From NCBI GenBank assembly GCA_032718475.1, contig JAUCBJ010006254.1, forward strand, positions 1-64,000: a DNA stretch of 64,000 bases. The letters are read 5' to 3'. The position numbers were made by a program, and so were the translations under genes. The stretch is from Nemertoderma westbladi. Taxonomy: Eukaryota > Animalia > Xenacoelomorpha. The notes below the pieces were generated by a model that was given only the letters and a program-made list of their open reading frames with translations, was not told the DNA's origin and did not search any database. This document shows, piece after piece, positions 6,887 through 42,400 of the stretch (the stretch's first letter is position 1; the number at the start of each line of letters is the position of its first letter).

Positions 6887-7186
6887 GGTTACTGACCTGA
6901 CCCATTGCTCAATTATTAACCGGACCCGTTGACAGAACCCATTGACCGGACCCATTACCATTTAAATGAGCAGGTTCGTAAAGGAGCAAGTTATACAGAT
7001 GGGGTTTGGGGGCACCAAAACAATAAACGAAAGTTAACACATGTTACAAGAATATGGGTCCGGTCACAAAGTTGAGGTAATAAGGGTCCGGTCAATAATA
7101 CACAATAAAATATAATCAAATATAAAGCTTCATTGCGGTATTTAGAGGGTCGGGGTACAGTCAATGTGTCCGCCCGGTCAGTAGCC
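6887..7186. mobile_element. MITE (~300 bp)
   Basis: TIR ggttactgacc / ggtcagtagcc with mirrored internal gaccggaccc / gggtccggtc subrepeats. No clear TSD. Confidence 0.6.
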
Positions 7187-18827: not shown

Positions 18828-20098
18828 CTAGAAAGGCATTTCCTAAAGGAAATGCAACCACGAAGCTAAGGAAAATTAAACAAACGGCCACAATTTGGTT
18901 CGTTGCTTAGCCTAGTTTAGTAGCATTTGCCAATAAATAACTTCTATTCCCATGGAAACTAGAGTTCTCTGGAACTGTTGGTTTTACCTTTGAAAAAAGA
19001 TTCAGTCCAGATTGTTTTTCAGATAACACATCGAGTTTCAGAAAATATTGTAGTTTATGTCCAAATTACAGATTTTCTATCAAAATGCATCTGTTTGCAG
19101 TGGTTGTCATGGAAACTGAAAAATACAACAATGTAATTCGGATGCAGAATAAGTCATTTAGTGGGGGTAGGTGTTGGTCCCAAGTCATAATACTATTAAA
19201 TTGTGCTTCAAATTATCATTTTATTAATTTTAACATCTGTTTACTCTTGTTGCTATGGTAAATGGATTTTCTAATTAACTTCGAACGGCTTGTATATGGA
19301 TGGACCTTATAGATGAGTTGCAAAACCCCAAGTTTATATATATTACAGTTTTTCTCCAAATAGAGTTATGATTATAGACTTGAATGATATATAACTTTAA
19401 AAAAACTACAGTTACCATGGTAACTAGATATTTCTGGAATGTTTTGAGTTTCACTAAAAGTTCCAACTAGTGGTCCAGATAACACATACCTAGTTTCGTA
19501 AAATTTTATCGTGAAGTCTATGTACAAATGAATAATTTTCGTATAAAAACATCTGTTTTCAGCGGTTGTCAAGGTAACTGCAAAATAGAACAATCAAATT
19601 CGGACGCAGAATAAGTTATATAGTGGGGGTAGGGATTGGTCCCAAGTCATCACACCTTAACCTTAGGCTTCAAATTAACATTTTAAAAATTTTAACATCT
19701 GTTTAGCCCGGTTGCCAAGGTAACTGGATTTTCTATTTAACCTCAATCGGCTCTGCTATGGACCTTATAGTTGTGTTGAGAAACCCCAAGTTTATATGTA
19801 TTATAGTTTTCCTACAAATAGAGTTACAAATATTGACTTGAAATACATAGACTTTTTTCTAAGTCCGTTGCCATGGAAACCAGATTTTTCCTGGAGATGA
19901 GACCCATCCCACACGACGCGCCTTGATGAGTTGTATATACATGCAAAATTTCAGGGTACTTTTAAAGGCTAGTTTTTTCCCCGACCAAAAAACACTAAAT
20001 CTGCCTCACACAAGTAAAATAGCCCACTATGAATAGACCATCTCAGCTAAGGAAAATCTTTCTTAGCGAAAGTAGTTGATTTTCCTTAGCTTCGTGGA
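18828..20098 (-). mobile_element. Helitron/Helentron-like element copy 7, nested in the LINE endonuclease domain
   Basis: Nearly identical to copy 1. Removing it restores the LINE frame ...DKIDQIS-N-RIIRCHF.... Confidence 0.92.
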
Positions 20099-20157
20099 AC
20101 CGCATCATCCGTTGCCACTTCTCATGTTCTGGAAGACTGGCTAAGAAGTTTCCTAAG

Positions 20158-22779
20158 GTGGTTCTGATTGTGTGCTACTCTCCAACTAGTGTTGCCCCTG
20201 TAGAGGAGGTGGAAAATTTCTACCACAATCTACAAGCAGCTACTGATGGAGTGGATCAGCATGCATTCTTAACATTCCTGGGAGACTTTAATGCAAGTCT
20301 GCATCAATCACCGACATCACCCTGGGTCTATAGCAATAGTGTTAACCGAAATTCTGTCCATCTTCAGGATTTTATCTCTGGAAATGGATTGTTTTCGGCT
20401 GGAACCCAGTTCAAGAAGCGAACTGGAAAGCTATGGACTCATAGTGGACCCAGTGGTCACAAGTCCCAGATAGACCATATTCTGTTTCGTAGGAAATACA
20501 GGAGCTCTATACAAGACTGTAATGCATTTACACTTCGACCCTTCTCCAGTGATCACCGCCTTATTGTGGCCAAGGTAAGACTTAGTCTGCGTGCTAGCAG
20601 AACAACGAAATCTGCCTTGCCACGGCATGACTGGTCCTCTCTGTTGCAACAGCCAAGTGTGAGATCCAGCTTCACACTACAGCTGAGCAACAGGTATGAG
20701 GCTCTTGCCTCTGAGGCGGCAGATCACTGTGAGGGCTATACTGCCTTTACAGAAGCAGTTAAGTTAGCAGCTGCAGAAACAGTTCCTGTATACCCTCGAA
20801 ACAGGAAAAGGGCCCCCTGGACTGACAACAAAATTCAGAAGTGCCGAAATGACCTTCATAAGGCGCAGAAAGAGTCCCGACTCAAACAGACTACAGCGGC
20901 CAAGAATGCAGTTAAAGCTGCATCTAGGTCCCTGAACAGGCAGTACTCTGTTAATCTACAGGAGCTAATAAACCAACAGGTTGATGCCATCAATGATGCT
21001 GACGACAGCAGGCAATCATCCCAGGCATGGAAATCGATCAATCTGCTTACTGGGCGGAAAAGCCAACCAACCACCAAGGTTAAGGCTGAATCACCAGCAA
21101 TAGCATGCATGGATCGCCGCAATGGTTGGAAAGCCCACTTTGAAAAGCTCCTCAATAATGACAGGGTATTGCCTGATAACTTTATAGAAGTAAAAGTGTC
21201 TGAGTCTGTACTCCCAGATATTCCCATTGGCGATATCTCCTTTGCAGAAGTGAATGCTGCTGCAAAGAGCATTAAGACCAATCGTGCCAGTGGAGTAGAT
21301 GGTGTTCCCCCTGAGGTCTTTAAAATACCTGAGTGTTTAAAGCTCATCTATCCCTTCATAGTAGACATGTACCGTACAACAAGAGTCCCACAAGAAATGA
21401 AAACAAATAAGTTGGTGCCAGTTCCCAAGAAAGGCAACCTAACACTCTATGGTTCTTTTCGGGGAATCTCATTGATCTCGATTGCTGCAAAACTATACAA
21501 TAGAATTCTATTAAATCGCATCAGGGATCCCATTGAGAGACTGCTACGTGGAAATCAGAATGGGTTCCGTAAAGGTCGTGGGACCATGGAGCCCATTTTG
21601 GCACTTAGAAGGATAATTGAAGAGTTATCAAAAAAGAAAGACAGGCATCTGGCTGTTATCTTTGTTGACTTCTTCAAGGCCTTTGATTCAGTCTCTCGCT
21701 CACGTATGTTCAGCATACTTTCATTATATGGGATTCCTGATGAAATTATTGCAGCAATCAGATCAGTATACGATGGTTCAACAACATTTGTGTCTACTGT
21801 TGACGGTGACACAGAACCATTTGAAGTGTTATGGGGCGTCCTCCAAGGAGACACACTTGCACCATTCTTGTTCATTATTGTGGTTGACTATGTTCTACGC
21901 ATGTCCTTAGATCATCATAATGATGATGGGGTGATGATAACTCCACCTACTGGCTCCAGAAGTCGAGGAAATCCTGCCAAGTACCTAACTGATCTAGACT
22001 TTGCTGATGACTTAGGAGTACTCTCAGAATCATTAGAGGGAGCCCAGCGGCTCCTCAGCTCATTAGAACATGCTGCTTCTAGTGTTGGTCTTTTTATTAA
22101 CTCCAGAAAGACCAAAATTCTGACTGTTAACTTTGAAAGTCCTCAGCAAGTCTCTGATCGGATGAGCATAAGCTCAAAGGATGGTATGCTTGAGCATGTG
22201 GACGACTTCTGTTACCTGGGATCATGGATCCGGAAGTCAGGTGAGGACCTTCGAATACGTAAGGGAAAGGCATGGGCAGCCTTGAATAGGCTTTCCAGGA
22301 TTTGGAAGTCACCTAGAATTAATCGGAAACTTAAGGTCCGATTATTTAGAGCAGCAGTAGTTCCAGTACTCCTCTACGGGAGTCCATGCTGGGCTCTAAC
22401 TGCTGAGGACACCAAATCTCTGGATGGCACATTCACAAGAATGCTACGCCGGGTACATTGTGTCAAGTACAATGCACACATCTCCAACCAGACACTATAT
22501 AACATTGGAGGTGTCTCATTGGTTCCCCCAAGCTTGACACTAGAACAAAATCGGCTCCGCTTTGCAGGACATTGCTTTCGCCGTGAGGACCAGCCAGTGC
22601 ATAATCTTGTACTTTGGCAGCCTCATGGAGTGAATAAGCATGGTGGACAACCCATGACTTTCTTGAGACGCATCTTAAAGGACACTGGCCTTGAAGATGC
22701 GGATGATCTAGCAAATGTCATGGGTGATAGGGAGTTGTGGCGGTGCGATTTTGTCGATAAGCCGGCACAGCATTCTTAA
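20158..22779 (+). CDS. LINE ORF2 (C-terminal part of AP endonuclease + reverse transcriptase), N-terminally disrupted
   Basis: APE motifs GDFNA, QIDHIL, SDH; RT motifs QNGFR, FVDFFKAFDSV, GVLQGDTLAP, DFADDL, YLGS; RTE-like C-terminus RLRFAGHCFR. Confidence 0.93.
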   Translation: MVLIVCYSPTSVAPVEEVENFYHNLQAATDGVDQHAFLTFLGDFNASLHQSPTSPWVYSNSVNRNSVHLQDFISGNGLFSAGTQFKKRTGKLWTHSGPSGHKSQIDHILFRRKYRSSIQDCNAFTLRPFSSDHRLIVAKVRLSLRASRTTKSALPRHDWSSLLQQPSVRSSFTLQLSNRYEALASEAADHCEGYTAFTEAVKLAAAETVPVYPRNRKRAPWTDNKIQKCRNDLHKAQKESRLKQTTAAKNAVKAASRSLNRQYSVNLQELINQQVDAINDADDSRQSSQAWKSINLLTGRKSQPTTKVKAESPAIACMDRRNGWKAHFEKLLNNDRVLPDNFIEVKVSESVLPDIPIGDISFAEVNAAAKSIKTNRASGVDGVPPEVFKIPECLKLIYPFIVDMYRTTRVPQEMKTNKLVPVPKKGNLTLYGSFRGISLISIAAKLYNRILLNRIRDPIERLLRGNQNGFRKGRGTMEPILALRRIIEELSKKKDRHLAVIFVDFFKAFDSVSRSRMFSILSLYGIPDEIIAAIRSVYDGSTTFVSTVDGDTEPFEVLWGVLQGDTLAPFLFIIVVDYVLRMSLDHHNDDGVMITPPTGSRSRGNPAKYLTDLDFADDLGVLSESLEGAQRLLSSLEHAASSVGLFINSRKTKILTVNFESPQQVSDRMSISSKDGMLEHVDDFCYLGSWIRKSGEDLRIRKGKAWAALNRLSRIWKSPRINRKLKVRLFRAAVVPVLLYGSPCWALTAEDTKSLDGTFTRMLRRVHCVKYNAHISNQTLYNIGGVSLVPPSLTLEQNRLRFAGHCFRREDQPVHNLVLWQPHGVNKHGGQPMTFLRRILKDTGLEDADDLANVMGDRELWRCDFVDKPAQHS

Positions 22780-23946: not shown

Positions 23947-24523
23947 ATTTCTGGTTCTGCAAAACACCTTCCATGTATAAATTTATATCCCATAGATGGA
24001 TACCTAGTTTAGGGCAGGAGAGGGAAATTCAAATTATATATTAGGCCTGTTTATTGTACTTCGATAACTGTTGACTACAATTTTGCTTGCTAATGATCAG
24101 ACCAGAACAAGATCGCCATTTCTCTCATTTTAAGTCGTATTCTTATTATAATTGGTCCCCGCCTTAAATGGAATAAATTAACAACAGTAAAAAAAACACT
24201 AGTATTCGGACGTAGCGACCTAGCTGCCTACCGGTACCGCCACAACATTAGTTGAAGGACTGGAGACTGGATCAGTGAACTACCGTGCGTCGTCATAGCA
24301 GTGAAATAAGTATAACTGTTATATGTAAAACTAATCAGTTATATTTATCTAAGCCAAACTACTGTTTTACTGGTACTTGTACTTGCAGTCTGTACCTGGT
24401 ACACTACAGTGTGATATTTTATCTAAGTATCTATTTCTTTGAGTCTCTGACTGACAATTCCTCTGCATTACATTATATACCGTACATTGCCATAAACTTA
24501 TTGTGGAGGTAAATCAAATATTA

Positions 24524-25561
24524 ATGGAATACGCCACAGACTCCGAGGGTTCGGTTCCAACAGATGATGATTCAATGGAAGGGGATTGTAACTGCAACAT
24601 TTGCGATTATTATGGTAGATCCTCCGAAGACTACGACACTTCCCGCGAGCTCCATTGGGCTGCTGCGGATGGTTATATAGAAAAGTGTCGCGATCTTTTA
24701 TTGGAAGGACGCGATCCGAATAGTAAGGTTGACGTGGGTTTCGGGAAGTTAACACCGCTGCATAACTTTCTTAAACGTATCTTCAATTATAGTGATTCTG
24801 AAGAAATTTACAAAGGGGTGAAGATGTTCCTTGAACTTGGATCTAGTTCTAGTTCACATATTCTTATAACTGCAGTCGAATGCATAAATCTCGACAGTTT
24901 CGAACTGATTTTAAAGAATAGCAGTCTCGGTCATATTAACGGCACTGTCCGCGTACATAAACACACACCACTTTCTTGGGCTGTAGAACTCGGTTGCGCA
25001 AAACACGTTGAAATGATCTTAAAATATGGGGCGGAACCGACTAGTAAGCCTTTCGCGTTCGAAACTATCCTTAGCGGGGAATGTTCCGGAACACTGCCTC
25101 TTCCGGTGATGAAACGGTTGTACCGCCGGAGCATTGCCGAACGCCTAAAAAGCCCCAGTCGTTACCAATACCAAATAGGCGATAAATGGGATGAGCTCGT
25201 ACTTTACATCCAGACAGGTTACACCATCTCTACGCCTCCAATGTTTCTGGATGGGACGGGACCTTACACAGGGATTTTACGAAGTGTAATCCCTTATAAA
25301 TACTTAAAGGAACTCATTTACGACCTATGTCCTTCAAGACATAATTACATATGTGAGAACTTTCGCATTCATGAGGAGGTGATTGGTGAGGATTTGGAGT
25401 TGCAATTTTTAAGTCTGCAGCATATGAGTCGAAGGGTGATCCGGGAATGTTTGTTTCGTAGCGGGAAGGAATTTGAAGAAATCAATAAGGCGTTACTTCC
25501 ACCTGTTCTACCTTTAGTATTGCGGAGATACGTGCTTGGCATGTGGGATGATAACTATTAA
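24524..25561 (+). CDS. Ankyrin repeat and SOCS box-containing protein (ASB-like), intronless
   Basis: Ankyrin motifs LHWAAADG, TPLH, TPLSWAVELG..LKYGA; C-terminal SOCS box SLQHMSRRVIRECL...LPLVLRRYV. First ATG at 24524. Confidence 0.85.
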   Translation: MEYATDSEGSVPTDDDSMEGDCNCNICDYYGRSSEDYDTSRELHWAAADGYIEKCRDLLLEGRDPNSKVDVGFGKLTPLHNFLKRIFNYSDSEEIYKGVKMFLELGSSSSSHILITAVECINLDSFELILKNSSLGHINGTVRVHKHTPLSWAVELGCAKHVEMILKYGAEPTSKPFAFETILSGECSGTLPLPVMKRLYRRSIAERLKSPSRYQYQIGDKWDELVLYIQTGYTISTPPMFLDGTGPYTGILRSVIPYKYLKELIYDLCPSRHNYICENFRIHEEVIGEDLELQFLSLQHMSRRVIRECLFRSGKEFEEINKALLPPVLPLVLRRYVLGMWDDNY

Positions 25562-26112: not shown

Positions 26113-27006
26113 TAATTTATCTCCCTTTCTACCCGATCAGCTGCGTTTAATTTATCTCCCTTTCTATAATTTATCTCCCTTTCTACCCGATCAGCTGCGT
26201 TTAATTTATCTCCCTTTCTACCCGATCAGCTGCGTTTAATTTATCTCCCTTTCTATAATTTATCTCCCTTTCTACCCGATCAGCTGCGTTTAATTTATCT
26301 CCCTTTCTACTCGATCAGCTGCGTTTAATTTATCTCCCTTTCTATAATTTATCTCCCTTTCTACCCGATCAGCTGCGTTTAATTTATCTCCCTTTCTACC
26401 CGATCAGCTGCGTTTAATTTATCTCCCTTTCTACCCGATCAGCTGCGTTTAATTTATCTCCCTTTCTATCCGATCAGCTGCGTTTAATTTATCTCCCTTT
26501 CTATAATTTATCTCCCTTTCTACCCGATCAGCTGCGTTTAATTTATCTCCCTTTCTATAATTTATCTCCCTTTCTACCCGATCAGCTGCGTTTAATTTAT
26601 CTCCCTTTCTACCCGATCAGCTGCGTTTAATTTATCTCCCTTTCTACCCGATCAGCTGGGTTTAATTTATCTCCCTTTCTACCCGATCGGCTGCGTTTAA
26701 TTTATCTCCCTTTCTATAATTTATCTCCCTTTCTACCCGATCAGCTGCGTTTAATTTATCTCCCTTTCTACCCGATCAGCTGCGTTTAATTTATCTCCCT
26801 TTCTATCCGATCAGCTGCGTTTAATTTATCTCCCTTTCTATAATTTATCTCCCTTTCTATCCGATCAGCTGCGTTTAATTTATCTCCCTTTCTACCCGAT
26901 CAGCTGCGTTTAATTTATCTCCCTTTCTACCCGATCAGCTGCGTTTAATTTATCTCCCTTTCTATAATTTATCTCCCTTTCTATCCGATCAGCTGCGTTT
27001 AATTTA
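26113..27006. repeat. 35-bp satellite, left part
   Basis: Unit aatttatctccctttctacccgatcagctgcgttt with interspersed 19-bp short units aatttatctccctttctat. Confidence 0.98.
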
Positions 27007-28208
27007 TGTAAAAGCTTTTGTGGGATAACTGATACGTTTGCCTTTGCTGGCCAGTTCCCCCCCAGTCGCTAGAATACTCTCAAAGGGATTTATAACTAAA
27101 ATAGTGCAAGCTACCAGCTTATTGGCTGATGTGCTGTACGGAGATATCTGGGCTCAGTTTAATCGGCCAACTAGCTTAGAGAGGTTGCCTTAGCCTTGCT
27201 GTCCGTATCGGCCAATAGAATTTGAGTGGGCGTTGATTTCGACCTATCCCAGAGCCAGAGCTACTGAACTGAATTTCCTATCTCACTGCTCATCCTCTGT
27301 GTTGGACGGGAGCTTCGGGGAATAAGGGTAGTTGGTATACTCGTATAGTCATTCCAGTCATATGATTTTATATGATTCTGTTGTTGTGTTCCCATTTTCG
27401 CCATAACACCGGCTTTTTGGGAAGAACTCTAGTAAAACTGCTTAAATTATCGAAAGTATAAACTGTTACCTACTCACTTACTTAACTAACTCACTTAATT
27501 TAACTGCATTAATCATATTGTTTGTACTGTTATTTTACTGTCAGTTATTAATTGTATCTATTTGTTGATGGAAATATTGCTCTTTGGAGAATACGGATAA
27601 ATCACCCAAAATTCCCAATTTTCTTGATACACTACAGGTTAGAGAGACGGGCTATATATAACAATTGCGATTTATATTAATGTGGTGTGTATTGAATCTA
27701 ATGTTATTTAGCGGACCCTACATGAGTCAATTGCTGCTCTCTTTATGTGTGATCAAATATACTGACGGTCGGCAGAATAGTGTGCATGATTGTGATTGGT
27801 AACAAAGTATTTCCTAAAGAATGCGCTTTATACTTTAATCATAAGCAGTATCGTTGCGTTTAGTATAAGTCCTAGTTCTGTTTAAATAGATAGAGCGCCA
27901 CGTCCTAAAGGAACTGTTAATATTCCCCGAAAGCCAATAATATCTGTCAGGAATTAATTATTAATGATCTGTCGAATAATACAGTAAGTTTACGCTGCAA
28001 CCTTACACTGCAATAATAAAATTTAAGCATCCGAATTCAGCCTCCCGGGTGTAGATCCATCGGGTGAATGATCGCGCATGGGCTGACTTCGGCTAATGTT
28101 TTGCGTATTAGCATAAAATATTGTCGTATGCTAAAGGTGTTTTAATTAACTAAAAGACATATAAATTTTGGCAGGTTAAACTGCTAAAGGTCTTCAAAAG
28201 CGCGAACA
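27007..28208 (+). repeat. 5' LTR (1202 bp)
   Basis: tgtaaaagc...gcgcgaaca. By eye it differs from the 3' LTR by a 6-bp duplication (ccagag) and one substitution. Confidence 0.97.
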
Positions 28209-28221
28209 GTAACAGTTTATA
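28209..28221 (+). promoter_or_regulatory. Non-tRNA primer-binding site, candidate self-priming PBS
   Basis: gtaacagtttata abuts the LTR and is the exact reverse complement of LTR 27457-27469 (tataaactgttac). No TGG start. Confidence 0.7.
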
Positions 28222-28513
28222 ATCTTATTGCAGTAGGCAATAAGGTTGCAAAATACCGTAGTGACTGGTAAAACTGAACCGGTACTTCTGTAGGTCAGTA
28301 GGCCTAACTGTCATCACCGGTACCGGTACTGCTGTACAAGTACATTTAGTATTATTCGATTTTGATTATTGTATACCGGTAGGCTGTTTAAGAGATTAGG
28401 GACTGTACACCCCTTGTTTCTTTTGGAGCTTACTTATTTCTGTCGGTTTTATTTCCTAGTAAGTTAATATTGAGCTGAAGACGTGTAAGTCTGCTCAGAT
28501 TGTGCAAGTAATT

Positions 28514-29085
28514 GTAGGCTGAACTGCTGTCTGACTGTGTTGAGTTTGGAGAGATTACGGCGTGTGTAGAGTTTGTCTGATAAAGTGCCGTTAGTAAGTT
28601 GGGGCAGCCATATGCGGTAAGGTCAATCCCCTCTTAAAGAATAAGTCGTACTACCGTGTTAGAACGCATACTAACTAACAGTTTCAGAGTCTGCATATAC
28701 TGTAGTTTATTTAGGCTTGATCATAGTCTGCCAGTGTTTTAGTCTGTGTTTGTTTGTGTGGTCTGTTCAGGTACCGTAATAGTTATTACTCAAATATTTT
28801 GTAGGCTGGATTGTTGTCTAGCTATTCTTAGGCCTGAAGGGATTGCTGCGTGTGTAGAGTTGGTCTGATAAAGTGCCGTTAGTAAGTTGGGGCAGCCATA
28901 TGCGGTAAGGTCAATCCCCTCTTAAAGAGTAAGTCGTACTACCGTGTTAGAACGCATACTAACTAACAGTTTCAGAATCTGCACATACTGTAGTTTGTTT
29001 AGGCTTGATAGTAGTCTGCCAGCGTTTAGTTTGTATTTTGTTTGAGTATTCTGTACGGGTAGCGTAATATTTATTATTCAGAGTT
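28514..29085 (+). repeat. ~287-bp tandem duplication in the retrotransposon leader
   Basis: Near-identical core cgtgtgtagag...gccatatgcggtaagg...catactaactaacagtttcag at ~28561 and ~28848. Confidence 0.9.
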
Positions 29086-30404
29086 TATGCGATTATTCGC
29101 AACATTCATGTCCCCAAGTTTATTCCTACAGTAATTGTGCTTGTTATACATACCGTTATAGTTAAATTAACCCCGGTACTACATCAGGGCTGCTCGGCGT
29201 AGGTAAAGACTGGAGATTTTGTGCTTCGGTCACTCCAGCAGATGCCGTGGTTCTTTTAACTGTTCAAGTATATTTAACTACTGATTATTTGTTATACCGG
29301 TACTTGTACCTAATTTAGGGTTTAGTGTACAGTGCTTTCCGAAGTAATTAGTGTAGGCAGTATATTTGTGTTGTAAAGTGGTTGATAGGCACATTCGTTA
29401 GCTCTATTAGCTTCTGGGTAGGCAGGTAGGAACAATCCGTGATACATAACGTAGTACCTATAGCGATACGGTTATAGGTCGTCAGGCGGTGGTATTTTCC
29501 TATCTGGACAGTACAATATATTTACTACTACTTATTATTTCAAATACCGTAGTACCCTGTCCGTTGTAATAACCAGAATTCTAACCCTTTGTTAGGCTGG
29601 TTTGTAGACTTCCTGTAAAATTACCCTAAAAATTTCGTACGTAATATTTTGTTGTGTTTAATTAGAGAATTAATCTCACCCGTATCGTAAGTAATTTGTA
29701 GTAATTAAGTAACTTAGGTAAATTAGAATTATCAGTTTTAGTGTCAAATAAATAGCACTTCACTGAGAGGCGTTCAGCTTCTGTGTAGTGACTCCCCCAG
29801 AAATAATAACATTTATTTCAAATATTGACAAAAACCCATATAAACGGGTATATAAATATTATAAATCAAATCAAACGATTTATAAATAGTAGGCCTGTCA
29901 TACAACAACTAGGTCTCACTACCAGTTGGACTACTGCTTAAATAACGGTAATAAAGTAAGTTAAAGTAACCAAGTAACCTTAAAATATTCAGAAATTCAA
30001 TTATTCTAAAAAATAATTGACATACCGGTACTTACAATAGGCTTTTTATATTTATTTCTATAAATTTGAGCTGAAATCATACCGGTACTCTGTAATTAAT
30101 TCTAGTCCAGAATTATACTTATATACTATAAGTGTAAGCTGCATACCGGTATTCACGATAGGCCTATTATATATTTATATATATTTGTGCTAAAATTATA
30201 TACCGGTACTCTGTGACAAATCTAGTCTGTAATAATACTTATATATATATTATAAGCATACCGGTATTCTAATATATTGTATATATATCACGTTACACTG
30301 AGTAACGGTGTCGGTAATAAATCGCTAGGCTTGCGGTCATACTGAATTACTAGACTTGCTTTAACTGAAACTATAGTAGTAGACATTCAACTGTATAACT
30401 AAAC

Positions 30405-33400
30405 ATGTCTGACACTCAGCAAAACCTGTCAGACAGTCTGATCGATACAACTATCTGTGATTCAGATAGGAGTGTGGAGCGAATAAGAAAGGAGTTCGGC
30501 TCACCTCCTACTGTAAAAAAGGTCATCCCTCCAGTAGTATCAGACCCTAGGCTAGTCCACCATAGGTCCATCATAGGCACTCGGGCACAGGTAAAACGGG
30601 ACCAAGAGGCAGTTGTCCTCTCGCAGCAACATCTTGGTCAAGAACCTACTTCCCAGCGACCCGATAGCTCCAGCAGTTCGGATACTGTAGAGTTGACTCC
30701 CGAACATGGAGTGCAGATGGCTGATACAGTCTACTCGGACCCCCTTCTTACTCTTCCTGCTGCAGTGCTAACTACTATATTCATTGCGGTGGAGGAACAT
30801 CAAGCCGACTGGGCGAAGAATAAGCGAGCGACCCAAGATAATTACGCGGGATACGCCAGGGAAGAATTGATATCTATTGTTGAATCACAATGGAACTTTC
30901 CCGGACTCGGACTTCCGTTGGATCTGTCCGAGGCTACTTGGGAAGATATACACAGGATGGGAGTGGCTAAAGATACAATGGATCCAGCTGTTTGGAAGAG
31001 GTCGGCAGCAGGATATGTGCAGGGATTCTTCGGATCCTTGGATCGATTGGAAGAACAACTGTTTCGACAACCTCACGGACCTCAAGAGCAGGAAGAGCTG
31101 CTATATCAAATACGCGAAAGAACCCTACGCATACGACTAATCCTCTCAGCCTTTGAGGAAACTTCCAAAAGAAGACAGGACACGTCGCTGCAGGTTGTTG
31201 TCAAAACTTGGCTACATCGGGTAGATCTCAAAGTACAGGAAACGGCCCAGTGGAAATCCCAGCTGGCTGAGAGATCAACTTATGAAGAACCAACTGATGT
31301 CACCCTTTCTCAAGCGGAAAGCGAAGAGGCCGCCGAGAAACCGCGAACTAGAGACGCTATCGACATTTATTTGTCCGACTATCAGCGATTCCTAGGAGAC
31401 GAAGAGTTGAGGAGACGGCTGTCTGGACTTTCCCCTAATAGTGAAGGAACCAAGCTTGTATTGGACTCAATCGATGCCGAAATGTTAGCTGCAAACCAAG
31501 CTAAATGTGATGAAAAACTCCGTCTCACTAGAGTCCGAGAAGAACAAATAAAGAAAAGAAGGATAGAGGAACAAAAGGCGGCGGCTATGGCAGATGCAGA
31601 AGCAGAAAAAAAAGCAGCAAAGGCGGCGGCTATGGCAGATGCAGAAGCAGAAAGAAAAGCAGCAAAGGCGGCGGCTATGGCAGAAGCAGAAGTAGAAAGA
31701 AAGGCAGCGGCGGCAGATGCAGAAGCAGAAAGAAAGGCAGCGGCGGCAGATGCAGAAGCAGAAAGAAAAGCAGCAAAGGCAGTGGCAGAAGCAGAAAGGA
31801 GAGCATCTGAGCAGACTACCCAACTGGAGTTGGAAAATCTGCAAGAGACACAAGACAGTATAAATAAACAGTTTACTGCTAATCAAATGCAGATGATGAG
31901 AAAATCTACTCCCAAGCGCCAGGGATACACATCCTCGGAGGAAGGCGATACTACCGATCCTGAAGGCGGAGGAAATAGATCTCATCTAAGTAGGCGTAGA
32001 AAAACATATTACCGTCGCAAATTGCCTGATTTGCCCCCAGCTGTTAAAAGACAGCTAAATAGCACAGACTTAGGTAGTGCAGAACCCATAGAACAATTTA
32101 TCCAGGTCAAAAGACTCCCTACTATAGTCGATGAACCTGAAATAATTAGGCCTGTTGTTCCCAAAGTCACTTCTGTGCTAGAGACCCCTACACTTCCAGA
32201 GCTTAACTCTAAATTCCCTTTACATAGTACTACCCTGCCTGTACCCGGTGGAACAGTCCCTGCAAATACCCCTGTCCAGATAGCAGAGAGAGAAATCAAT
32301 AATTTGTCTCCCGTCGTCCCGCGTCAGCCCGCTACTATGTTGGCGACTCCCGCTTCGGCGGTTGAGTGGGTGGAAGAGGGACGGCGGGGGATGAATCTCC
32401 TGCTGGGACAGATGCAGGAGACTGTCCACCAACTTAAGGGAACAGTGAGGGAAGGTAGAGCAGAGTTGCAAGAGGTGCAGCAAAGTATCGCACTAGAACG
32501 CGACAAATTAGTCAATATCCAAAAGGGCATACCAATACCCCCTGTAACATTGTGTCAACCTGTTAGGTCTGAAGTATTACATGCGCAAGGTGTGGAGCCT
32601 ACACGCATCTATACTGCTAGTGAAGTTGAAACTCCTATAGCAAACCCTATTAAGGGTGATTATAGGCCTGTTATTAATGATATTCCCTATAGAACTGATA
32701 ATGATCCGAGAAATTTATATACCGATAATTCGATATTAAATAACACGATGGCCCAAGAAAGCTTTACGCGTCAGATGGCTAGAACAGAAGCCCGCCAAGC
32801 GGTCAAAGTGGGAGAGATCGTCAAATTCAATGGAGATGAGATGAAATGGTTACCTTTCAACGAATATTACAAAGATAGCATACAGAACTCTGTACTATCT
32901 AACGGAGAGAAACTTAGATTCCTCATCAAGTGCTTGGAAGGACCTCCCAAGTTAATGGCGTTAAAGTTTATTGGACATCCAGATGGATTAAGACAAGTTT
33001 GGGATACATTAAACATCAGGTATGGTAACAAGGATAACATAGCTAAGTATTTGTATGCAAAATTAGTAGCCCCCCGACACTTCCTTAGTAGCGGGATTAT
33101 AGAGTTTTCCGATGAGATTCAAGAGATCTGTAGACAACTGGACTGGTTAGGTAAGTTGCATGAATATCAGAGTTCCATGGTCATTGGAGCCGTAGTCTCT
33201 ACTTTACCAAAAGGTGGAGTATGTACGCGCTGGGACAAGAAAGTGTTGTACATGAATGAACAACAACGACGAAGTCCTACCATGGCTGATCTCATGTCCT
33301 TCTTAGATAGTGAAGTAAAATTACAACTCATAAGGCAGTCCAGAGAGAAAACATCGGAAAATAAGGTAAGTGAGAAACCCGTTTCTAGGAGAAGGATAAT

Positions 33401-35087
33401 ACCAGTGTGTTATACTGACGACGGCGAAAGCCAAGCTTCTCAAGAAGAGGACAGCGGGAAAGACACAGCAAAATCTTACTATGACAACAAGACCTATAAA
33501 GACGTAAGAAAATACAAGTCTCGAACCAGTGACAGGAGAGAACAGGTAACAACAACTCCTCCTACGTCTCCTAAGAGAATTCACGGAAGAAAGCCCGAAG
33601 AAAGAACGAGAGTGCATAACGTTAACCAAGTTAAGGTGAGTAACATCAAACCAAAATGTGCGCTGTGCGACGGGCCCCACCGTTTGAGTGCGTGTGCTGA
33701 ATTTCTAAAGAAATCCCCTGTAGACAGACGTACAGTCCTGTGGAATAAGCGGTTATGCTATAATTGCCTCAGATCAGGACACCAACGGCGAACCTGTTAC
33801 TCCGACGTAAAGTGTGCAAAGTGTGGCGCGAAACATCACATCTTGTTACACAGTGAGTTCGAACGAGACAACCCGAGTCAGGTAAGTGAGCCCGAACTAC
33901 ATGTCCAATTCAGTGATGTGAACGACACTGACCAAGGTTCTGAGTGGGAAGGATTCTATACAGACGAATTCTCCGATGCCAACGAATCCTGTTATCTAAT
34001 AAATACCACAGTGTATCGAGCACTTACGTATGAAAAGGACACTGACGAGTTTACTCCAACTCCTTTTGACAAACAACCATCTTGGAAAGTTCCAACTTCC
34101 AACATAGGAATAAGAGAATTTCCTGTAGTGCAAGTGAGAGTTCATGGTCTCAACAAGAGTTACATAGTGAACGCCCTACTTGACTCCGGCAGCACAGGAA
34201 CATTCATCGATCAAGAACTAGCCGAAGATATCTTTGCTGGACAACCCAAGTTCCGGACTAAATTGAATATGTCAGGAATTATGCAGGTTTGGAAATCTAC
34301 CCTAACGGCAGATTACTATGTAGGTGTGTTGTCCACCCCCCAGGATAAGTTAGGAACACAAGGTATAAGGTCAGTAAAAATGGTGGCTATAAAGAACTTT
34401 GCTACTACTCAAGCAGAACCTTATAATTGGGACGAGGACGAGTGCATCCAACATCTTGAGATACCTCGATTCCAAACCGATTATCCTGGAGTGCAAATCC
34501 TCATCGGCCAAAACGCGCATGAGGCGCTCGAGACATTGGAGAAACGGCCTGCTCAACCGCAGCCATTACAAACTTATGCGGTAAGAACTAGAGTAGGTTG
34601 GTACTTTACTGGCCCTTCCCGCAGAACTCTTGAAGAAAGATTGCCACAAGACCGGCTACTTCAAGTAAAGGATTGGGAAGAGGGGAGCAGTGAAGTGGAC
34701 GAACCCACTGAGGTAACACCATACTCCTCAGATAATGACGATATTAACTCCAATGTAGATCAATGGAGACATCGCCCCGAGATGATTAATCTAGCCGACA
34801 TCGCTTCCAGAGGAGCAACTCCTCAAGAACGGATAGATACTCCCGGCTGGTTAGGTGGACCCTACTCCCTAAGTAAAGAAGAAGATGAATGGCCTCCTCA
34901 TCTTACCACTGCGGAGATTAGACAGGCCAAGGGAGCGGAGGAAGTAACACGACAGCCTAATCGCCCAGCTGGTCGCTTAGGTTTACTGGAAAGAGACCGA
35001 AAACTGTCCGGAAACCATGGAAGGCAAGATACTCTTCCTACGACCACTTCCCTAATTCGACAAAGATCTAGGGACTCCATAACGTAA
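30405..35087 (+). CDS. BEL/Pao gag-protease polyprotein fused to an RNase H C-terminal remnant (1560 aa)
   Basis: DUF1759-like KFNGDEMKWLPF...EKLRFLIKCLEG; knuckles CALCDGPHRLSAC, CYNCLRSGHQRRTC, CAKCGAKHHILLH; protease ALLDSGSTGTFI; WRH...NLADIASRG...W..GP..L...WP. No RT YxDD domain and no integrase. Confidence 0.93.
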   Translation: MSDTQQNLSDSLIDTTICDSDRSVERIRKEFGSPPTVKKVIPPVVSDPRLVHHRSIIGTRAQVKRDQEAVVLSQQHLGQEPTSQRPDSSSSSDTVELTPEHGVQMADTVYSDPLLTLPAAVLTTIFIAVEEHQADWAKNKRATQDNYAGYAREELISIVESQWNFPGLGLPLDLSEATWEDIHRMGVAKDTMDPAVWKRSAAGYVQGFFGSLDRLEEQLFRQPHGPQEQEELLYQIRERTLRIRLILSAFEETSKRRQDTSLQVVVKTWLHRVDLKVQETAQWKSQLAERSTYEEPTDVTLSQAESEEAAEKPRTRDAIDIYLSDYQRFLGDEELRRRLSGLSPNSEGTKLVLDSIDAEMLAANQAKCDEKLRLTRVREEQIKKRRIEEQKAAAMADAEAEKKAAKAAAMADAEAERKAAKAAAMAEAEVERKAAAADAEAERKAAAADAEAERKAAKAVAEAERRASEQTTQLELENLQETQDSINKQFTANQMQMMRKSTPKRQGYTSSEEGDTTDPEGGGNRSHLSRRRKTYYRRKLPDLPPAVKRQLNSTDLGSAEPIEQFIQVKRLPTIVDEPEIIRPVVPKVTSVLETPTLPELNSKFPLHSTTLPVPGGTVPANTPVQIAEREINNLSPVVPRQPATMLATPASAVEWVEEGRRGMNLLLGQMQETVHQLKGTVREGRAELQEVQQSIALERDKLVNIQKGIPIPPVTLCQPVRSEVLHAQGVEPTRIYTASEVETPIANPIKGDYRPVINDIPYRTDNDPRNLYTDNSILNNTMAQESFTRQMARTEARQAVKVGEIVKFNGDEMKWLPFNEYYKDSIQNSVLSNGEKLRFLIKCLEGPPKLMALKFIGHPDGLRQVWDTLNIRYGNKDNIAKYLYAKLVAPRHFLSSGIIEFSDEIQEICRQLDWLGKLHEYQSSMVIGAVVSTLPKGGVCTRWDKKVLYMNEQQRRSPTMADLMSFLDSEVKLQLIRQSREKTSENKVSEKPVSRRRIIPVCYTDDGESQASQEEDSGKDTAKSYYDNKTYKDVRKYKSRTSDRREQVTTTPPTSPKRIHGRKPEERTRVHNVNQVKVSNIKPKCALCDGPHRLSACAEFLKKSPVDRRTVLWNKRLCYNCLRSGHQRRTCYSDVKCAKCGAKHHILLHSEFERDNPSQVSEPELHVQFSDVNDTDQGSEWEGFYTDEFSDANESCYLINTTVYRALTYEKDTDEFTPTPFDKQPSWKVPTSNIGIREFPVVQVRVHGLNKSYIVNALLDSGSTGTFIDQELAEDIFAGQPKFRTKLNMSGIMQVWKSTLTADYYVGVLSTPQDKLGTQGIRSVKMVAIKNFATTQAEPYNWDEDECIQHLEIPRFQTDYPGVQILIGQNAHEALETLEKRPAQPQPLQTYAVRTRVGWYFTGPSRRTLEERLPQDRLLQVKDWEEGSSEVDEPTEVTPYSSDNDDINSNVDQWRHRPEMINLADIASRGATPQERIDTPGWLGGPYSLSKEEDEWPPHLTTAEIRQAKGAEEVTRQPNRPAGRLGLLERDRKLSGNHGRQDTLPTTTSLIRQRSRDSIT

Positions 35088-36709
35088 TTATATATGGAGT
35101 GGGTGTATGTCTATATTATTTTATCTATTTTTATTACATTTTATATGTGAACTTTATTATGTACTTTATTATAATCGTTTTTATTCAATTTTTATTTAGT
35201 AGAATGCTATTTTAGAATGTTTAGTAGATTAGTGCAATATATTAGTGTTTATTACGTACATAATTACTTATAATATATATTTAGTGCGACGGCAAGAAGT
35301 AATTATTTTCTCTTTCCTTACTGTCCGTATTATATTATAAATGCGAGACTATAGTAAGATGACATGTCAGTACTTCTTAAAGTACAATAAAGCCACTACT
35401 ATATTTAAGTATTATTGGTAGGCAGAGTATTAGGAATGCAAAGTTCAGATCCTCGTGTCTCGGCTAAACCAAGCTCTGGGTAGACCTTGGAAACGACTTG
35501 CCTCTTCACACTGACATTGCTTCGTGCGATATTGCTCTTCTACCTTATAACAAATAATACATATAGTAGCGTGATGTCCCTCTAACAGTAGCGTAAATCG
35601 CAAATAAATCTGTTAAACTTTTGACCATCTGTAATTCTAGTCGATTAAGATATCGTGGCACCCACCGATATACTTGAAAGACAAATTCTAGAATCAGTGG
35701 TTAACGTCCCCAGACAAGTTCTGGAATAAATCGGTGCCCATCCTAAATATTAATTTAATATTTATTAAAATCTGTAAAATTCAGATCCGTTAACAATTCT
35801 AGTCGATTAAGATATCGTAGCACTTACCGATACTCTTAAAAGACAAATTTCATAGAATTAAGGATCCTATGTCCCCAGACCTGCTCTGGAATCAAATTGT
35901 GTCAATTTTAACATCAAATAATAAAATTCACGGGAATAAATTTAAATTCATATTCGAATGAATTTCATAAATTGTCATTTTGTGCAATTTATAACATTCC
36001 CAAAATTCCAGTAATTAATAGATCATGGGAGCGGAGATTCATATTGAGTGTACTAGAGTGCGAGAATCTCCAATATATAGTCAATAGCCGATAAAATTTG
36101 TAAAATCATGCATAAAGAGAATATTGACAATTAAAGAATTACTATTAAATAACATCCCAGATCTGTATGCATGAGAAGTACCCTAATTCTACCGCTAGTT
36201 TTCCATAATGTCACCATGGCAACACCCACGCTAGAATTAGAAGCAAGTTAAAGGAACAATAAAAGGCTTGCCCCATTGCGTAGCATAAGAGTATACATAG
36301 CGCACTATTAGTATCCAAGGATACATAGTAATAACGTGACATTCTGGAAGACACTGACTAACGGACAAATGGCATGCATGTGTGCAGTAATTAATGATTG
36401 TATGGAATTTGTGCGTTTGTAGGTGAATGTTACTACTAAAGTGTGTTTACAGTAGCTAATCGCAATTGTAAAGTAGCCCTAACTCTACCGAGATAACCTC
36501 AAGTGGATTCAAGCCTTTGGGACGGACAGTGGTGGGACTTGTGCCGGTTATCGTTGTCGTGCTGTTGCTACATGTTGGCGTAAACACTGCGACAGCGGTA
36601 CATCGGCGCTGAGAAACCCACTGTCCGGGGGCAAAAGCCTAGTAGGCAGCGACGCCCGCTTGCCTAAAATATTAACTTATATTGATATTAATAAACTCAG
36701 ATAACAGAT

Positions 36710-37108
36710 ATGACGGAATTGATAGAAGATGACCTTGGTATCAGGGAGCGATATACTCTACCTTTACAAGCGTTTGTGGATAGCTTGATACGCGGTGAAG
36801 CCGATCCGACTATTACGGAGGACGATGGTCGTTATATCGAACCGCCGAGGTCCCAGGAACAACTTACGCGTGAATTGGACTATAGAAAATTCACCGCTCG
36901 CTATACGCATCGTAATGGTACGTATATGGACTTCTTAACTACCGGCCATCCTATCGATTTACATGATACGGACGATGTAGACACCGAAAGGGAAATGGTT
37001 CTATTTAAATATCATACCCAGCGGCGTCGTAACGATAAACCGAGAATAGATCACGAAAATTCTATTCGTAACAGACTGGGAAGACGAACCAATATGTCTG
37101 GAATCTGA
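36710..37108 (+). CDS. Accessory ORF A of the LTR element, unknown function (132 aa)
   Basis: ATG-initiated, GC-richer than flanks, acidic N-terminus and Arg-rich C-terminus (TQRRRNDKPR...RNRLGRR). Confidence 0.6.
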   Translation: MTELIEDDLGIRERYTLPLQAFVDSLIRGEADPTITEDDGRYIEPPRSQEQLTRELDYRKFTARYTHRNGTYMDFLTTGHPIDLHDTDDVDTEREMVLFKYHTQRRRNDKPRIDHENSIRNRLGRRTNMSGI

Positions 37109-37264
37109 GGAGATTCAGCCTATCGCGCTCGGAACAGCGACAACGATTACATCCTAGAATGGTACCAAGGTCCACAGTGTCTCACTGCGTACGATTATCG
37201 CCATGCCAACTATGTTTCTCGGCAACGTTGTCGGTTATGCGCATCGAGAGACCATGTTACGCCC

Positions 37265-38158
37265 ATGGACACAAACGTCCGCTGTTCCTATTTCCACGAA
37301 CAACCGGCGATGGAAATTTATTGCGCGTATTGCAGATTTAATAATTTGCACATTTTTGCGGTTTGCCCTCAATTTACGACTCAATGTCACCATTGTCAAC
37401 TAAAGGGACATGCCAGTTTCGATTGTCCTTTTAATCACGATTTGGAAAGCGTAGATGAAATGATCACACTACGTTACATCAGAGCTTGGGAAGCGAACAC
37501 TGATTTACATTGTGATTCACGCCATCGCTATTATCCTGGACGCGCTTACGAAGGAGTTTATGCGTTCCATCCTTATTTGTTTGCCTCCGTCGAGCAGAAA
37601 TCGCGCCTATCAAGTTATGAACTATTGAAGCGCGTTGGAGAATGTATTTCAACCAAATATGTACGCAAATTTCTCAGGAGCATTAATCCGAGTGACATCA
37701 ATTCGTACAACTTAATAAACTTTATCCGTCAAGATCCGGCCTATGGAGACTTATTTGTCAACTCACACCCCGAGTTACAAGAAGTATATCGACGGCCTTA
37801 CGAGTACAGAGCCCGCGAACGCGAGTTGGAAAGAACCATTAAACCAAGGAAGTTTCTAACTGCCTATGGTTCACCCACGGCCCTCGTTCAGACCACTCGT
37901 AAAGGACACGTAAGAGCGGCTGTCTTGAAACGAGCTCTCAAAGCCGTTAGACCCCTCTCCCCGGACGTTGATGTCAATCAACCCGGTACTTCGACCGGCG
38001 GATATACCGATCGCAATCCCATACCTTCTGATGCAATCATATTGCACCCTTCACCCAGGAGTTATAGCCCTCCTCGTAAAGCGGCTCGCCCCAAAGAGAA
38101 AAGGACTCTTGCTAGCTTTAAAAAACTGCGTAAACGCCGTCCGCGCAAGAAAGACTAA
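37265..38158 (+). CDS. Accessory ORF B of the LTR element: zinc-knuckle protein with basic C-terminus (297 aa)
   Basis: CAYCRFNNLHIFAVC and CHHCQLKGHASFDC (CX2CX4-5HX4C); NLS-like C-terminal KKLRKRRPRKK. Confidence 0.75.
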   Translation: MDTNVRCSYFHEQPAMEIYCAYCRFNNLHIFAVCPQFTTQCHHCQLKGHASFDCPFNHDLESVDEMITLRYIRAWEANTDLHCDSRHRYYPGRAYEGVYAFHPYLFASVEQKSRLSSYELLKRVGECISTKYVRKFLRSINPSDINSYNLINFIRQDPAYGDLFVNSHPELQEVYRRPYEYRARERELERTIKPRKFLTAYGSPTALVQTTRKGHVRAAVLKRALKAVRPLSPDVDVNQPGTSTGGYTDRNPIPSDAIILHPSPRSYSPPRKAARPKEKRTLASFKKLRKRRPRKKD

Positions 38159-38228
38159 CTGTTTAGAGTATTTTTATATTTTAGAAACTGTGATTTTGTA
38201 TATTTTATAGACTTAAATCCCATTTTCT

Positions 38229-38236
38229 GGGAGCGG
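38229..38236 (+). promoter_or_regulatory. Short polypurine tract
   Basis: gggagcgg immediately before the 3' LTR, preceded by a T-rich run. Confidence 0.6.
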
Positions 38237-39432
38237 TGTAAAAGCTTTTGTGGGATAACTGATACGTTTGCCTTTGCTGGCCAGTTCCCCCCCAGTCGCT
38301 AGAATACTCTCAAAGGGATTTATAACTAAAATAGTGCAAGCTACCAGCTTATTGGCTGATGTGCTGTACGGAGATATCTGGGCTCAGTTTAATCGGCCAA
38401 CTAGCTTAGAGAGGTTGCCTTAGCCTTGCTGTCCGTATCGGCCAATAGAATTTGAGTGGGCGTTGATTTCGACCTATCCCAGAGCTACTGAACTGAATTT
38501 CCTATCTCACTGCTCATCCTCTGTGTTGGACGGGAGCTTCGGGGAATAAGGGTAGTTGGTATACTCGTATAGTCATTCCAGTCATATGATTTTATATGAT
38601 TCTGTTGTTGTGTTCCCATTTTCGCCATAACACCGGCTTTTTGGGAAGAACTCTAGTAAAACTGCTTAAATTATCGAAAGTATAAACTGTTACCTACTCA
38701 CTTACTTAACTAACTCACTTAATTTAACTGCATTAATCATATTGTTTGTACTGTTATTTTACTGTCAGTTATTAATTGTATCTATTTGTTGATGGAAATA
38801 TTGCTCTTTGGAGAATACGGATAAATCACCCAAAATTCCCAATTTTCTTGATACACTACAGGTTAGAGAGACGGGCTATATATAACAATTGCGATTTATA
38901 TTAATGTGGTGTGTATTGAATCTAATGTTATTTAGCAGACCCTACATGAGTCAATTGCTGCTCTCTTTATGTGTGATCAAATATACTGACGGTCGGCAGA
39001 ATAGTGTGCATGATTGTGATTGGTAACAAAGTATTTCCTAAAGAATGCGCTTTATACTTTAATCATAAGCAGTATCGTTGCGTTTAGTATAAGTCCTAGT
39101 TCTGTTTAAATAGATAGAGCGCCACGTCCTAAAGGAACTGTTAATATTCCCCGAAAGCCAATAATATCTGTCAGGAATTAATTATTAATGATCTGTCGAA
39201 TAATACAGTAAGTTTACGCTGCAACCTTACACTGCAATAATAAAATTTAAGCATCCGAATTCAGCCTCCCGGGTGTAGATCCATCGGGTGAATGATCGCG
39301 CATGGGCTGACTTCGGCTAATGTTTTGCGTATTAGCATAAAATATTGTCGTATGCTAAAGGTGTTTTAATTAACTAAAAGACATATAAATTTTGGCAGGT
39401 TAAACTGCTAAAGGTCTTCAAAAGCGCGAACA
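38237..39432 (+). repeat. 3' LTR (1196 bp)
   Basis: tgtaaaagc...gcgcgaaca followed by TSD attta. Confidence 0.97.
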
Positions 39433-42400
39433 ATTTATCTCCCTTTCTACCCGATCAGCTGCGTTTAATTTATCTACATTTCTACCCGATCAGCTGCGTT
39501 TAATTTATCTCCCTTTCTACCCGATCAGCTGCGTTTAATTTATCCCCCTTTCTACCCGATCAGCTGCGTTTAATTTATCTCCCTTTCTACCCGATCAGCT
39601 GCGTTTAATTTATCTCCCTTTCTATCCGATCAGCTGCGTTTAATTTATCTCCCTTTCTACCCGATCAGCTGCGTTTAATTTATCTCCCTTTCTACCCGAT
39701 CAGCTGCGTTTAATTTATCTCCCTTTCTACCCGATCAGCTGCGTTTAATTTATCTCCCTTTCTACCCGATCAGCTGCGTTTAATTTATCTCCCTTTCTAC
39801 CCGATCAGCTGCGTTTAATTTATCTCCCTTTCTATAATTTATCTCCCTTTCTACCCGATCAGCTGCGTTTAATTTATCTCCCTTTCTATAATTTATCTCC
39901 CTTTCTACCCGATCAGCTGCGTTTAATTTATCTCCCTTTCTACCCGATCAGCTGCGTTTAATTTATCTCCCTTTCTATCCGATCAGCTGCGTTTAATTTA
40001 TCTCCCTTTCTACCCGATCAGCTGCGTTTAATTTATCTCCCTTTCTACCCGATCAGCTGCGTTTAATTTATCTCCCTTTCTACCCGATCAGCTGCGTTTA
40101 ATTTATCTCCCTTTCTACCCGATCAGCTGCGTTTAATTTATCTCCCTTTCTACCCGATCAGCTGCGTTTAATTTATCTCCCTTTCTATAATTTATCTCCC
40201 TTTCTACCCGATCAGCTGCGTTTAATTTATCTCCCTTTCTATAATTTATCTCCCTTTCTACCCGATCAGCTGCGTTTAATTTATCTCCCTTTCTACCCGA
40301 TCAGCTGCGTTTAATTTATCTCCCTTTCTACCCGATCAGCTGCGTTTAATTTATCTCCCTTTCTATCCGATCAGCTGCGTTTAATTTATCTCCCTTTCTA
40401 CCCGATCAGCTGCGTTTAATTTATCTCCCTTTCTACCCGATCAGCTGCGTTTAATTTATCTCCCTTTCTACCCGATCAGCTGCGTTTAATTTATCTCCCT
40501 TTCTACCCGATCAGCTGCGTTTAATTTATCTCCCTTTCTACCCGATCAGCTGCGTTTAATTTATCTCCCTTTCTATAATTTATCTCCCTTTCTACCCGAT
40601 CAGCTGCGTTTAATTTATCTCCCTTTCTATAATTTATCTCCCTTTCTACCCGATCAGCTGCGTTTAATTTATCTCCCTTTCTACCCGATCAGCTGCGTTT
40701 AATTTATCTCCCTTTCTACCCGATCAGCTGCGTTTAATTTATCTCCCTTTCTACCCGATCAGCTGCGTTTAATTGATCTCCCTTTCTACCCGATTAGCTG
40801 CGTTTAATTTATCTCCCTTTCTACCCGATCAGCTGCGTTTAATTTATCTCCCTTTCTACCCGATCAGCTGCGTTTAATTTATCTCCCTTTCTATAATTTA
40901 TCTCCCTTTCTACCCGATCAGCTGCGTTTAATTTATCTCCCTTTCTATAATTTATCTCCCTTTCTACCCGATCAGCTGCGTTTAATTTATCTCCCTTTCT
41001 ACCCGATCAGCTGCGTTTAATTTATCTCCCTTTCTACCCGATCAGCTGCGTTTAATTTATCTCCCTTTCTACCCGATCAGCTGCGTTTAATTGATCTCCC
41101 TTTCTACCCGATTAGCTTCGTTTAATTTATCTCCCTTTCTACCCGATCAGCTGCGTTTAATTTATCTCCCTTTCTACCCGATCAGCTGTGTTTAATTTAT
41201 CTCCCTTTCTACCCGATCAGCTGCGTTTAATTTATCTCCATTTCTACCCGATCAGCTGCGTTTAATTTATCTCCCTTTCTACCCGATCAGCTGCGTTTAA
41301 TTTATCTCCCTTTCTACCCGATTAGCTGCTTTTAATTTATCTCCCTTTCTACCCGATCAGCTGCGTTTAATTTATCTCCCTTTCTACCCGATCAGCTGCG
41401 TTTAATTTATCTCCATTTCTACCCGATCAGCTGCGTTTAATTTATCTCCCTTTCTACCCGATCAGCTGCGTTTAATTTATCTCCCTTTCTACCCGATTAG
41501 CTGCGTTTAATTTATCTCCCTTTCTACCCGATCAGCTGCGTTTAATTTATCTCCCTTTCTACCCGATCAGCTGCGTTTAATTTATCTCCCTTTCTACCCG
41601 ATCAGCTGCGTTTAATTTATCTCCCTTTCTCTCCGATCAGCTGCGTTTAATTTATCTCCCTTTCTACCCGATCAGCTGCGTTTAATTTATCTCCCTTTCT
41701 ACCCGATCAGCTGCGTTTAATTTATCTCCCTTTCTATAATTTATCTCCCTTTCTACCCGATTAGCTGCGTTTAATTTATCTCCCTTTCTACCCGATCAGC
41801 TGCGTTTAATTTATCTCCCTTTCTACCCGATCAGCTGCGTTTAATTTATCTCCCTTTCTACCCGATCAGCTGCGTTTAATTTATCTCCCTTTCTACCCGA
41901 TCAGCTGCGTTTAATTTATCTCCCTTTCTATAATTTATCTCCCTTTCTACCCGATCAGCTGCGTTTAATTTATCTCCCTTTCTCTCCGATCAGCTGCGTT
42001 TAATTTATCTCCCTTTCTACCCGATCAGCTGCGTTTAATTTATCTCCCTTTCTACCCGATCAGCTGCGTTTAATTTATCTCCCTTTCTATAATTTATCTC
42101 CCTTTCTATAATTTATCTCCCTTTCTATAATTTATCTCCCTTTCTATAATTTATCTCCCTTTCTATCCGATCAGCTGCGTTTAATTTATCTCCCTTTCTA
42201 CCCGATCAGCTGCGTTTAATTTATCTCCCTTTCTACCCGATCAGCTGCGTTTAATTTATCTCCCTTTCTACCCGATCAGCTGCGTTTAATTTATCTCCCT
42301 TTCTACCCGATCAGCTGCGTTTAATTGATCTCCCTTTCTACCCGATCAGCTGCGTTTAATTTATCTCCCTTTCTATAATTTATCTCCCTTTCTACCCGAT

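Follow-up and report, generated by a model that had tools for sequence, protein, structure and literature searches.

A recently inserted BEL/Pao element in the genome of Nemertoderma westbladi, which carries neither a reverse transcriptase (RT) nor an integrase, likely primes minus-strand synthesis from its own RNA and not from a host tRNA, a reading to which we assign a probability of roughly 0.65 from sequence comparisons. The mode is most probably like the self-priming of Tf1, and the element itself is not a member of the Tf1 group. Self-priming had been put forward in the preliminary description of this DNA. The proposal is strengthened by comparative evidence: nine or more distant BEL/Pao families have this geometry although their letters differ, and a conservation edge is present among copies of the element's own family. 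The part that found no support is a primer confined to the 5' tip of the RNA.

The element and its insertion site

The window, the whole stretch of 64,000 nt that was analysed, contains an LTR element of BEL/Pao type at 27007-39432 (12.4 kb). Its 5' LTR (27007..28208, +) is 1202 nt long with TG...CA ends, and its 3' LTR (38237..39432, +) is 1196 nt long and directly preceded by the polypurine tract GGGAGCGG (38229..38236, +). The two LTRs differ by a single 6-nt indel (27249-27254) and a single substitution (27713), and the target-site duplication ATTTA is intact on the left (27002..27006, +), within a 35-bp satellite array, and on the right (39433..39437, +); the insertion is therefore recent. 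The sole AATAAA of the LTR (28015..28020, +) is a candidate polyadenylation signal. The satellite array surrounds the element (26113-27007 and 39432-53576), with about 399 copies on the right side, including 19-bp variant units. Elsewhere in the window (54786-62046, -; 20080-22779, +; 24455-25561, +) are long-frame host genes (like AP5B1, 953 aa, and like TBC1D15/17) alongside a LINE-type RT frame and a frame with an ankyrin-SOCS box. The TBC1D15/17-like protein is 51-64% identical to its counterparts in many phyla, and a search with the AP5B1-like protein returned no match.

The Gag-protease open reading frame (30399..35087, +; 1562 aa from stop to stop) encodes a DUF1759 domain (E 9.6e-12), zinc knuckles, an aspartic protease with a weak Pfam match (E 0.007) and, at its end, a remnant of about 50 residues that corresponds to the terminal part of BEL/Pao RNase H. 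The element has neither an RT frame nor an integrase frame, which is to say that the Pol of BEL/Pao elements, with RT, RNase H and integrase, is not present as such. The element is a non-autonomous BEL/Pao derivative, an incomplete member of the family, and since it has no RT or integrase it relies on a partner for RT. With the Belpaoviridae (genus Semotivirus) it shares LTRs of about 1.2 kb with TG...CA ends, a 5-bp target duplication, a polypurine tract, a DUF1759 Gag, zinc knuckles, a protease, the RNase H remnant and an extra 3' ORF; it differs from them in that this copy has no tRNA-type primer-binding site (PBS), no RT, no integrase and only a small part of RNase H. Homologues of the Gag-protease carried PF03564 (DUF1759) in seven of seven cases and PF05380 in six of seven, at 21-32% identity. 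Protein searches returned no close relatives (identities mostly 21-38%), and the element's own Gag-protease as query found no match in the viral contigs or metagenome contigs scanned. Viral contigs scanned with alignments yielded one weak locus in one scan and none in another.

Between the 5' LTR and the Gag frame lies a leader of 2.2 kb (28209-30398) that contains a duplication spaced 288 bp and many copies of a ATACCGGTA-like motif, possibly a packaging or protein-binding signal. A comparison with Rfam found no known RNA in the element sequence. A tRNA-like primer encoded by the element itself was also considered and set aside, as ARAGORN found no tRNA-like RNA in the element or in 29 BEL/Pao loci.

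Complementarity between the PBS and the LTR

The 13-mer at the PBS position (28209..28221, +), GTAACAGTTTATA, does not begin with TGG. As the preliminary description had stated, it is the exact reverse complement of LTR positions 27457-27469 and of their second copy in the 3' LTR (38681-38693); this complement occurs nowhere else in the 64-kb window. The LTR segment (27457..27469, +) opens with the six letters TATAAA and would provide the candidate primer 3' end at C27469. Two further statements of the same description proved correct. Pairing stops at the LTR boundary, where A28208 is mismatched with C27470 (on the other side, A28222 is mismatched with G27456), and a tRNA-type PBS is absent, with no TGG anywhere in 28209-28260, the first 52 nt past the 5' LTR. 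The ICTV describes the Belpaoviridae as primed by host tRNA-Arg or tRNA-Gly through an 18-nt PBS, and their replication as poorly understood (PMC8742986). With no TGG in 28209-28260, an 18-nt site for a host tRNA 3' end was not found in this element; what was found is the arrangement of the Tf1 type, a PBS complementary to the element's own LTR with a duplex that ends at the LTR boundary.

We compared this match with chance expectation. When the LTR was shuffled 5000 times with dinucleotides kept, none of the shuffles gave a complement of at least 12 nt at offset 0, and 2 gave one of 13 nt when offsets of 0-5 were permitted. When start positions from 28209 to about 38206 were compared, 13 nt were reached at 28209 alone. 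Chance falls far short of explaining the self-complement at the PBS position, which is a genuine feature. A coincidental match in AT-rich DNA, or a functionless relic, could draw on the further 13-nt perfect inverted pairs (I18 and I19) that occur within the 12.4-kb element. Against it stand the position-specific probability of less than 1 in 2500, the conservation edge in family copies and the recurrence of the arrangement in distant families (both described below). We consider this explanation highly improbable and already largely refuted.

A perfect 8-bp hairpin adjoins the PBS (28224..28244, +; arms 28224-28231 and 28237-28244), as had been noted. The near-copy in U5 that had been proposed to support an alternative fold is indeed present (28175..28187, +; 9 of 13 matches), but the fold itself was populated in none of six ensembles. 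The near-copy pairs weakly (-6.8 vs -13.9 kcal/mol) and is preceded by a candidate acceptor AG; being one of five 9-of-13 near-copies in the LTR, it does not rise above chance and was dropped as a meaningful alternative partner. In the folding of one window, the duplex of PBS and 13-mer and the hairpin both formed. Of 20 choices of ends, 3 gave a minimum-energy structure that included the predicted duplex and in the others it cost 1-15 kcal/mol, and its probability ranged from 0.99 to 0 depending on the ends chosen. RNA folding, as modelled, gives no stable support for the duplex and is not counted as evidence.

Family copies and the start of transcription

Six of the seven listed sequencing runs contain the element or part of it, and four of these, all in the form of contigs, were compared. 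Within 27370-27570, 26 of the 33 substitution rows from the four runs fell inside 27471-27502 and none inside 27452-27470, although this count runs too high where depth drops away, the threshold being set as a fraction of the local depth. Summed depth in run X1 fell from about 504,000 at 27454-27460 to about 9,000 at 27475-27481, a collapse just past the 13-mer which means that most family copies diverge from this copy right there. The variable tract (27471..27502, +), defined by these rows and by the depth collapse, lies directly 3' of the candidate primer end. The resulting conservation edge, just after 27469-27470, coincides with the end predicted for the primer and speaks for self-priming. 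Loose ends of contigs revealed a variant in which the last base of the 13-mer changes from C to T, which would give a G-U pair, and a diverged relative that shares with the 13-mer just its six final letters. All four runs also contain a minor deletion of one base at 27462, which was counted against self-priming. Under self-priming, strong-stop DNA would end in the variable tract past 27470, and changes could enter there during strand transfer.

The preliminary description had placed the transcription start at 27455-27457 on an initiator-like AGT. The letters AGT are there, but they do not fit the YYANWYY pattern. The proposed start finds no support, given the missing initiator match, the TATAAA with which the 13-mer opens and a weak hint from sequencing depth that points instead to about 27433-27440.

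This hint comes from run X4, which looks like RNA because it holds a splice-joined contig and an excess of A>G changes. In that contig, position 27637 is joined to 36493, which identifies a splice donor in the LTR (27638..27643, +; GTTAGA). An AG stands just before 36493, where the acceptor in this copy reads GAG. The joint suggests that the 3' frames are carried by a spliced subgenomic RNA. The candidate 3' exon of this RNA (36493..38158, +) contains open frames of 137 aa and 349 aa (36695-38158), with a single in-frame TGA between them; the 349-aa frame is rich in Cys and His, has a basic tail and bears a weak likeness to zinc knuckles, and its Atlas matches all scored below 0.9 and serve as leads only. 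The two frames form a putative accessory gene in a non-autonomous element. No intron internal to the LTR (27637 joined to 28175) was among the joints listed for the compared runs. Across 26950-28700, run X4 had 87 A>G places vs 33 T>C; A-to-I editing of RNA from the element is a possible source of this excess. The ratio of X4 to X1 depth, computed by hand from the tables, was 0.0015 at 27426-27432, 0.015-0.028 over 27433-27467, 0.026 at 27524-27530 and 0.0005 at 27658-27716, beyond the donor. In bins of U3 the ratio reached 0.005-0.018, and X4 has a loose end at 27435. These ratios carry limited weight, as contig depth cannot rank parts of a gene; they are a weak hint, consistent with a first exon that begins near 27433-27440 and includes the 13-mer.

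The letters TATAAA at 27457 are the only match to TATAWA upstream of the splice donor at 27638, which counts against self-priming: if they are a TATA box, the 13-mer lies outside the 5' end of the RNA. Transcription would then start at about 27485-27490, and the partner of the PBS would be the copy in the 3' LTR (38681-38693), on the same RNA or on a second one, amounting to self-priming or circularisation unlike that of Tf1. The position of this sole TATAWA ahead of a donor that is used, and the lack of an initiator match at 27455, both agree with such a box, and the variable tract at 27471-27502 would equally mark the point of strand transfer near such a start. However, conservation continues seven letters beyond TATAAA, to the end of the complement, and variants without TATAAA still keep the 3' end of the 13-mer. 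The X4/X1 depth, again as a weak hint, is alike on either side of 27488 (about 0.02-0.03) and falls at 27433 (0.0015). In the spliced relatives considered below, moreover, the intron is kept in both LTRs, which would fit a primer taken from the 5' copy. We regard a TATA box at this place as unlikely, and a primer from the 5' LTR remains the preferred reading.

Distant BEL/Pao relatives and a proposed mechanism

A scan of part of a metagenome collection with an 18-protein alignment gave 79 BEL/Pao loci, drawn from the best 80 of 571 confirmed stretches. Of these loci, 45 were inspected for terminal repeats and 43 for PBS candidates. The scan rule asked for ACA or ATA, then 0-4 nt, then GT-A/T, with at least 10 nt complementary to upstream sequence, either contiguous or across GT-AG; it was set after a first look at the same loci, which we counted against self-priming. 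A self-complement of 10-13 nt was found in 15 of 38 scannable loci (39 were given, one of which was too short), compared with 0.125 expected from shuffles, and many of the negative loci are without a whole 5' LTR. For loci in which a terminal repeat fixes the start of the 5' LTR, and with the GT requirement dropped, 11 of 12 were positive (10-13 nt) against 0.4 expected. The 11 represent nine families, seven of them spliced, with the complement formed across an LTR intron junction, and two contiguous; the twelfth locus, L070, has a TGG-type (tRNA-type) site. All 11 positive loci have a duplex whose end lies 0-6 nt away from the LTR end, and in three loci (L018, L019 and L055) the site lies 0-3 nt past an LTR end that was fixed independently through the 3' LTR.

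Across 14 loci and the window, a set that had been selected for GT, the PBS letters share the first two positions and differ from position 3 onwards, while each site is complementary to the LTR of its own element. GT as a universal start of the PBS does not hold, since L003 and L047 begin with AT. TGG-type sites were seen in L033, L067, L070 and L078, and the self-complement of L046, which probably lies outside an LTR, was counted against self-priming. Identical PBS letters recur in related families (L015, L019, L020 and L054). Between L015 and L019 the interior of the LTR intron has diverged and the donor, acceptor and primer halves are kept.

In a Pol tree (quick search, 36 rows), all 11 self-pairing rows fell into a single clade of 29 (SH-aLRT 100), and both TGG rows lay outside it. 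The window element, in a Gag-protease tree, was a long branch that fell into no starred set; a tree that forces it into the self-pairing clade is not rejected (p-AU 0.061). As the element is not placed in that clade, the relatives are not its close kin. They mark the self-pairing geometry as a selected trait of BEL/Pao, and do not bear on whether it came down to this element from them.

Selection on the pairing could also be structural, for packaging, dimerisation, control of splicing or translation, or shielding of the PBS, with a host RNA such as an internal tRNA fragment as the primer. Half-tRNA primers do exist in Ty1/copia lineages, according to the available passages of PMC6317226. Yet each family has PBS letters of its own that match its LTR, a correspondence not to be expected if a few host RNAs were the primers, and the duplex ends within 0-6 nt of the LTR end in 11 of 11 loci, just where a primer must end. 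A structural role combined with a host primer is in our view unlikely.

Three relatives (L019, L029 and L055) have a TATA-like box 122-144 nt upstream of the pairing segment, so the primer there would be the internal end of a longer 5' piece, unlike in Tf1. The strict version of the earlier proposal, a Tf1-like primer of 11-13 nt at the very 5' end, is not supported, given this spacing. In L055 (145-326 compared with 6924-7103), the acceptor AG is present in the 5' LTR and the 88%-identical 3' LTR runs through the primer segment without interruption. This suggests intron-bearing and intron-free versions of one LTR; the assembly may be chimeric, and the donor was not found in the contig.

For the window element, we propose that transcription would begin at or upstream of 27457, with the segment 27457-27469 folding back to pair with 28209-28221. 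Cleavage after C27469 would fall to a nuclease, which by analogy with Tf1 would be the RNase H of an RT that an autonomous partner provides, and this 3' end, opposite G28209, would extend directly into the terminal CA of the LTR. The primer may exceed 13 nt, with its last 13 nt alone paired. The predicted strong-stop DNA of 739 nt (from 28208 back to 27470) would jump to the 3' LTR within R, and the 3' LTR copy would supply the 13-mer anew in the progeny. In relatives with a spliced primer segment, cleavage just downstream of the junction would exclude the spliced joint from the DNA copy, and the intron would for that reason stay in the LTR.

Self-priming has been shown for Tf1, whose first 11 bases pair with the PBS and are separated by an RNase H cut between bases 11 and 12 (available passages of PMC7175516 and PMC4600332), and has been put forward for Tj1, Tcn1 and the TAR lineage of copia (available passages of PMC7175516, PMC4600332 and PMC6317226). 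As far as these passages go, the likeness of our element to Tf1/Tf2 of S. pombe, Tj1 of S. japonicus and the Tf1/sushi group lies in a PBS that is complementary to the element's own LTR and not to a tRNA. It differs from that group in superfamily, as its proteins are not those of Ty3/gypsy chromoviruses, the Gag being of BEL/Pao type (DUF1759). It differs from Tf1 also in pairing 13 nt and not 11, in a paired segment that lies about 740 nt from the PBS and in a position at the RNA 5' end that is only putative; many BEL/Pao relatives, again unlike Tf1, form the paired segment across an intron junction. For Tcn1 (Ty3/gypsy) and the Ty1/copia elements TAR, Houba and Osr-1, from plants and fungi, self-priming was predicted from complementarity alone (available passages of PMC6317226), the same level of evidence as for this element. 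Those elements differ from the present one, which is of BEL/Pao type and from an animal, and in the passages available they are without a splice-junction form. Self-priming is already proposed, on these sources, in two superfamilies, Ty3/gypsy and Ty1/copia. For BEL/Pao we found no description of it in the openly searchable full-text literature; a term search found no mention of the PBS in the BEL/Pao or LTR surveys PMC3118150, PMC554778, PMC6238403 and PMC2774666, and BEL/Pao self-priming is absent from the available passages of PMC3601003, PMC13524379, PMC3286476, PMC8220671, PMC6934838 and PMC9873768.

A wider reading, for which we see the balance as even, is that a large part of BEL/Pao gave up tRNA priming and uses the element's own RNA; its primer would end within the transcript and not at the 5' tip, and many families would assemble it by splicing out an LTR intron. 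This element would be a deeply diverged intron-free form, perhaps with an origin of its own, that reached a very high copy number while having no RT. The prediction can be tested at exact coordinates, as a cut after C27469 and a strong-stop DNA of 739 nt. Should the signature stand for priming, a third superfamily of LTR elements would join those with self-priming, and many animal elements would have a PBS that tRNA-based annotation has missed. In the relatives, host splicing would be tied directly to the start of reverse transcription. The signature also bears on which of the two is ancestral, tRNA priming or self-priming.
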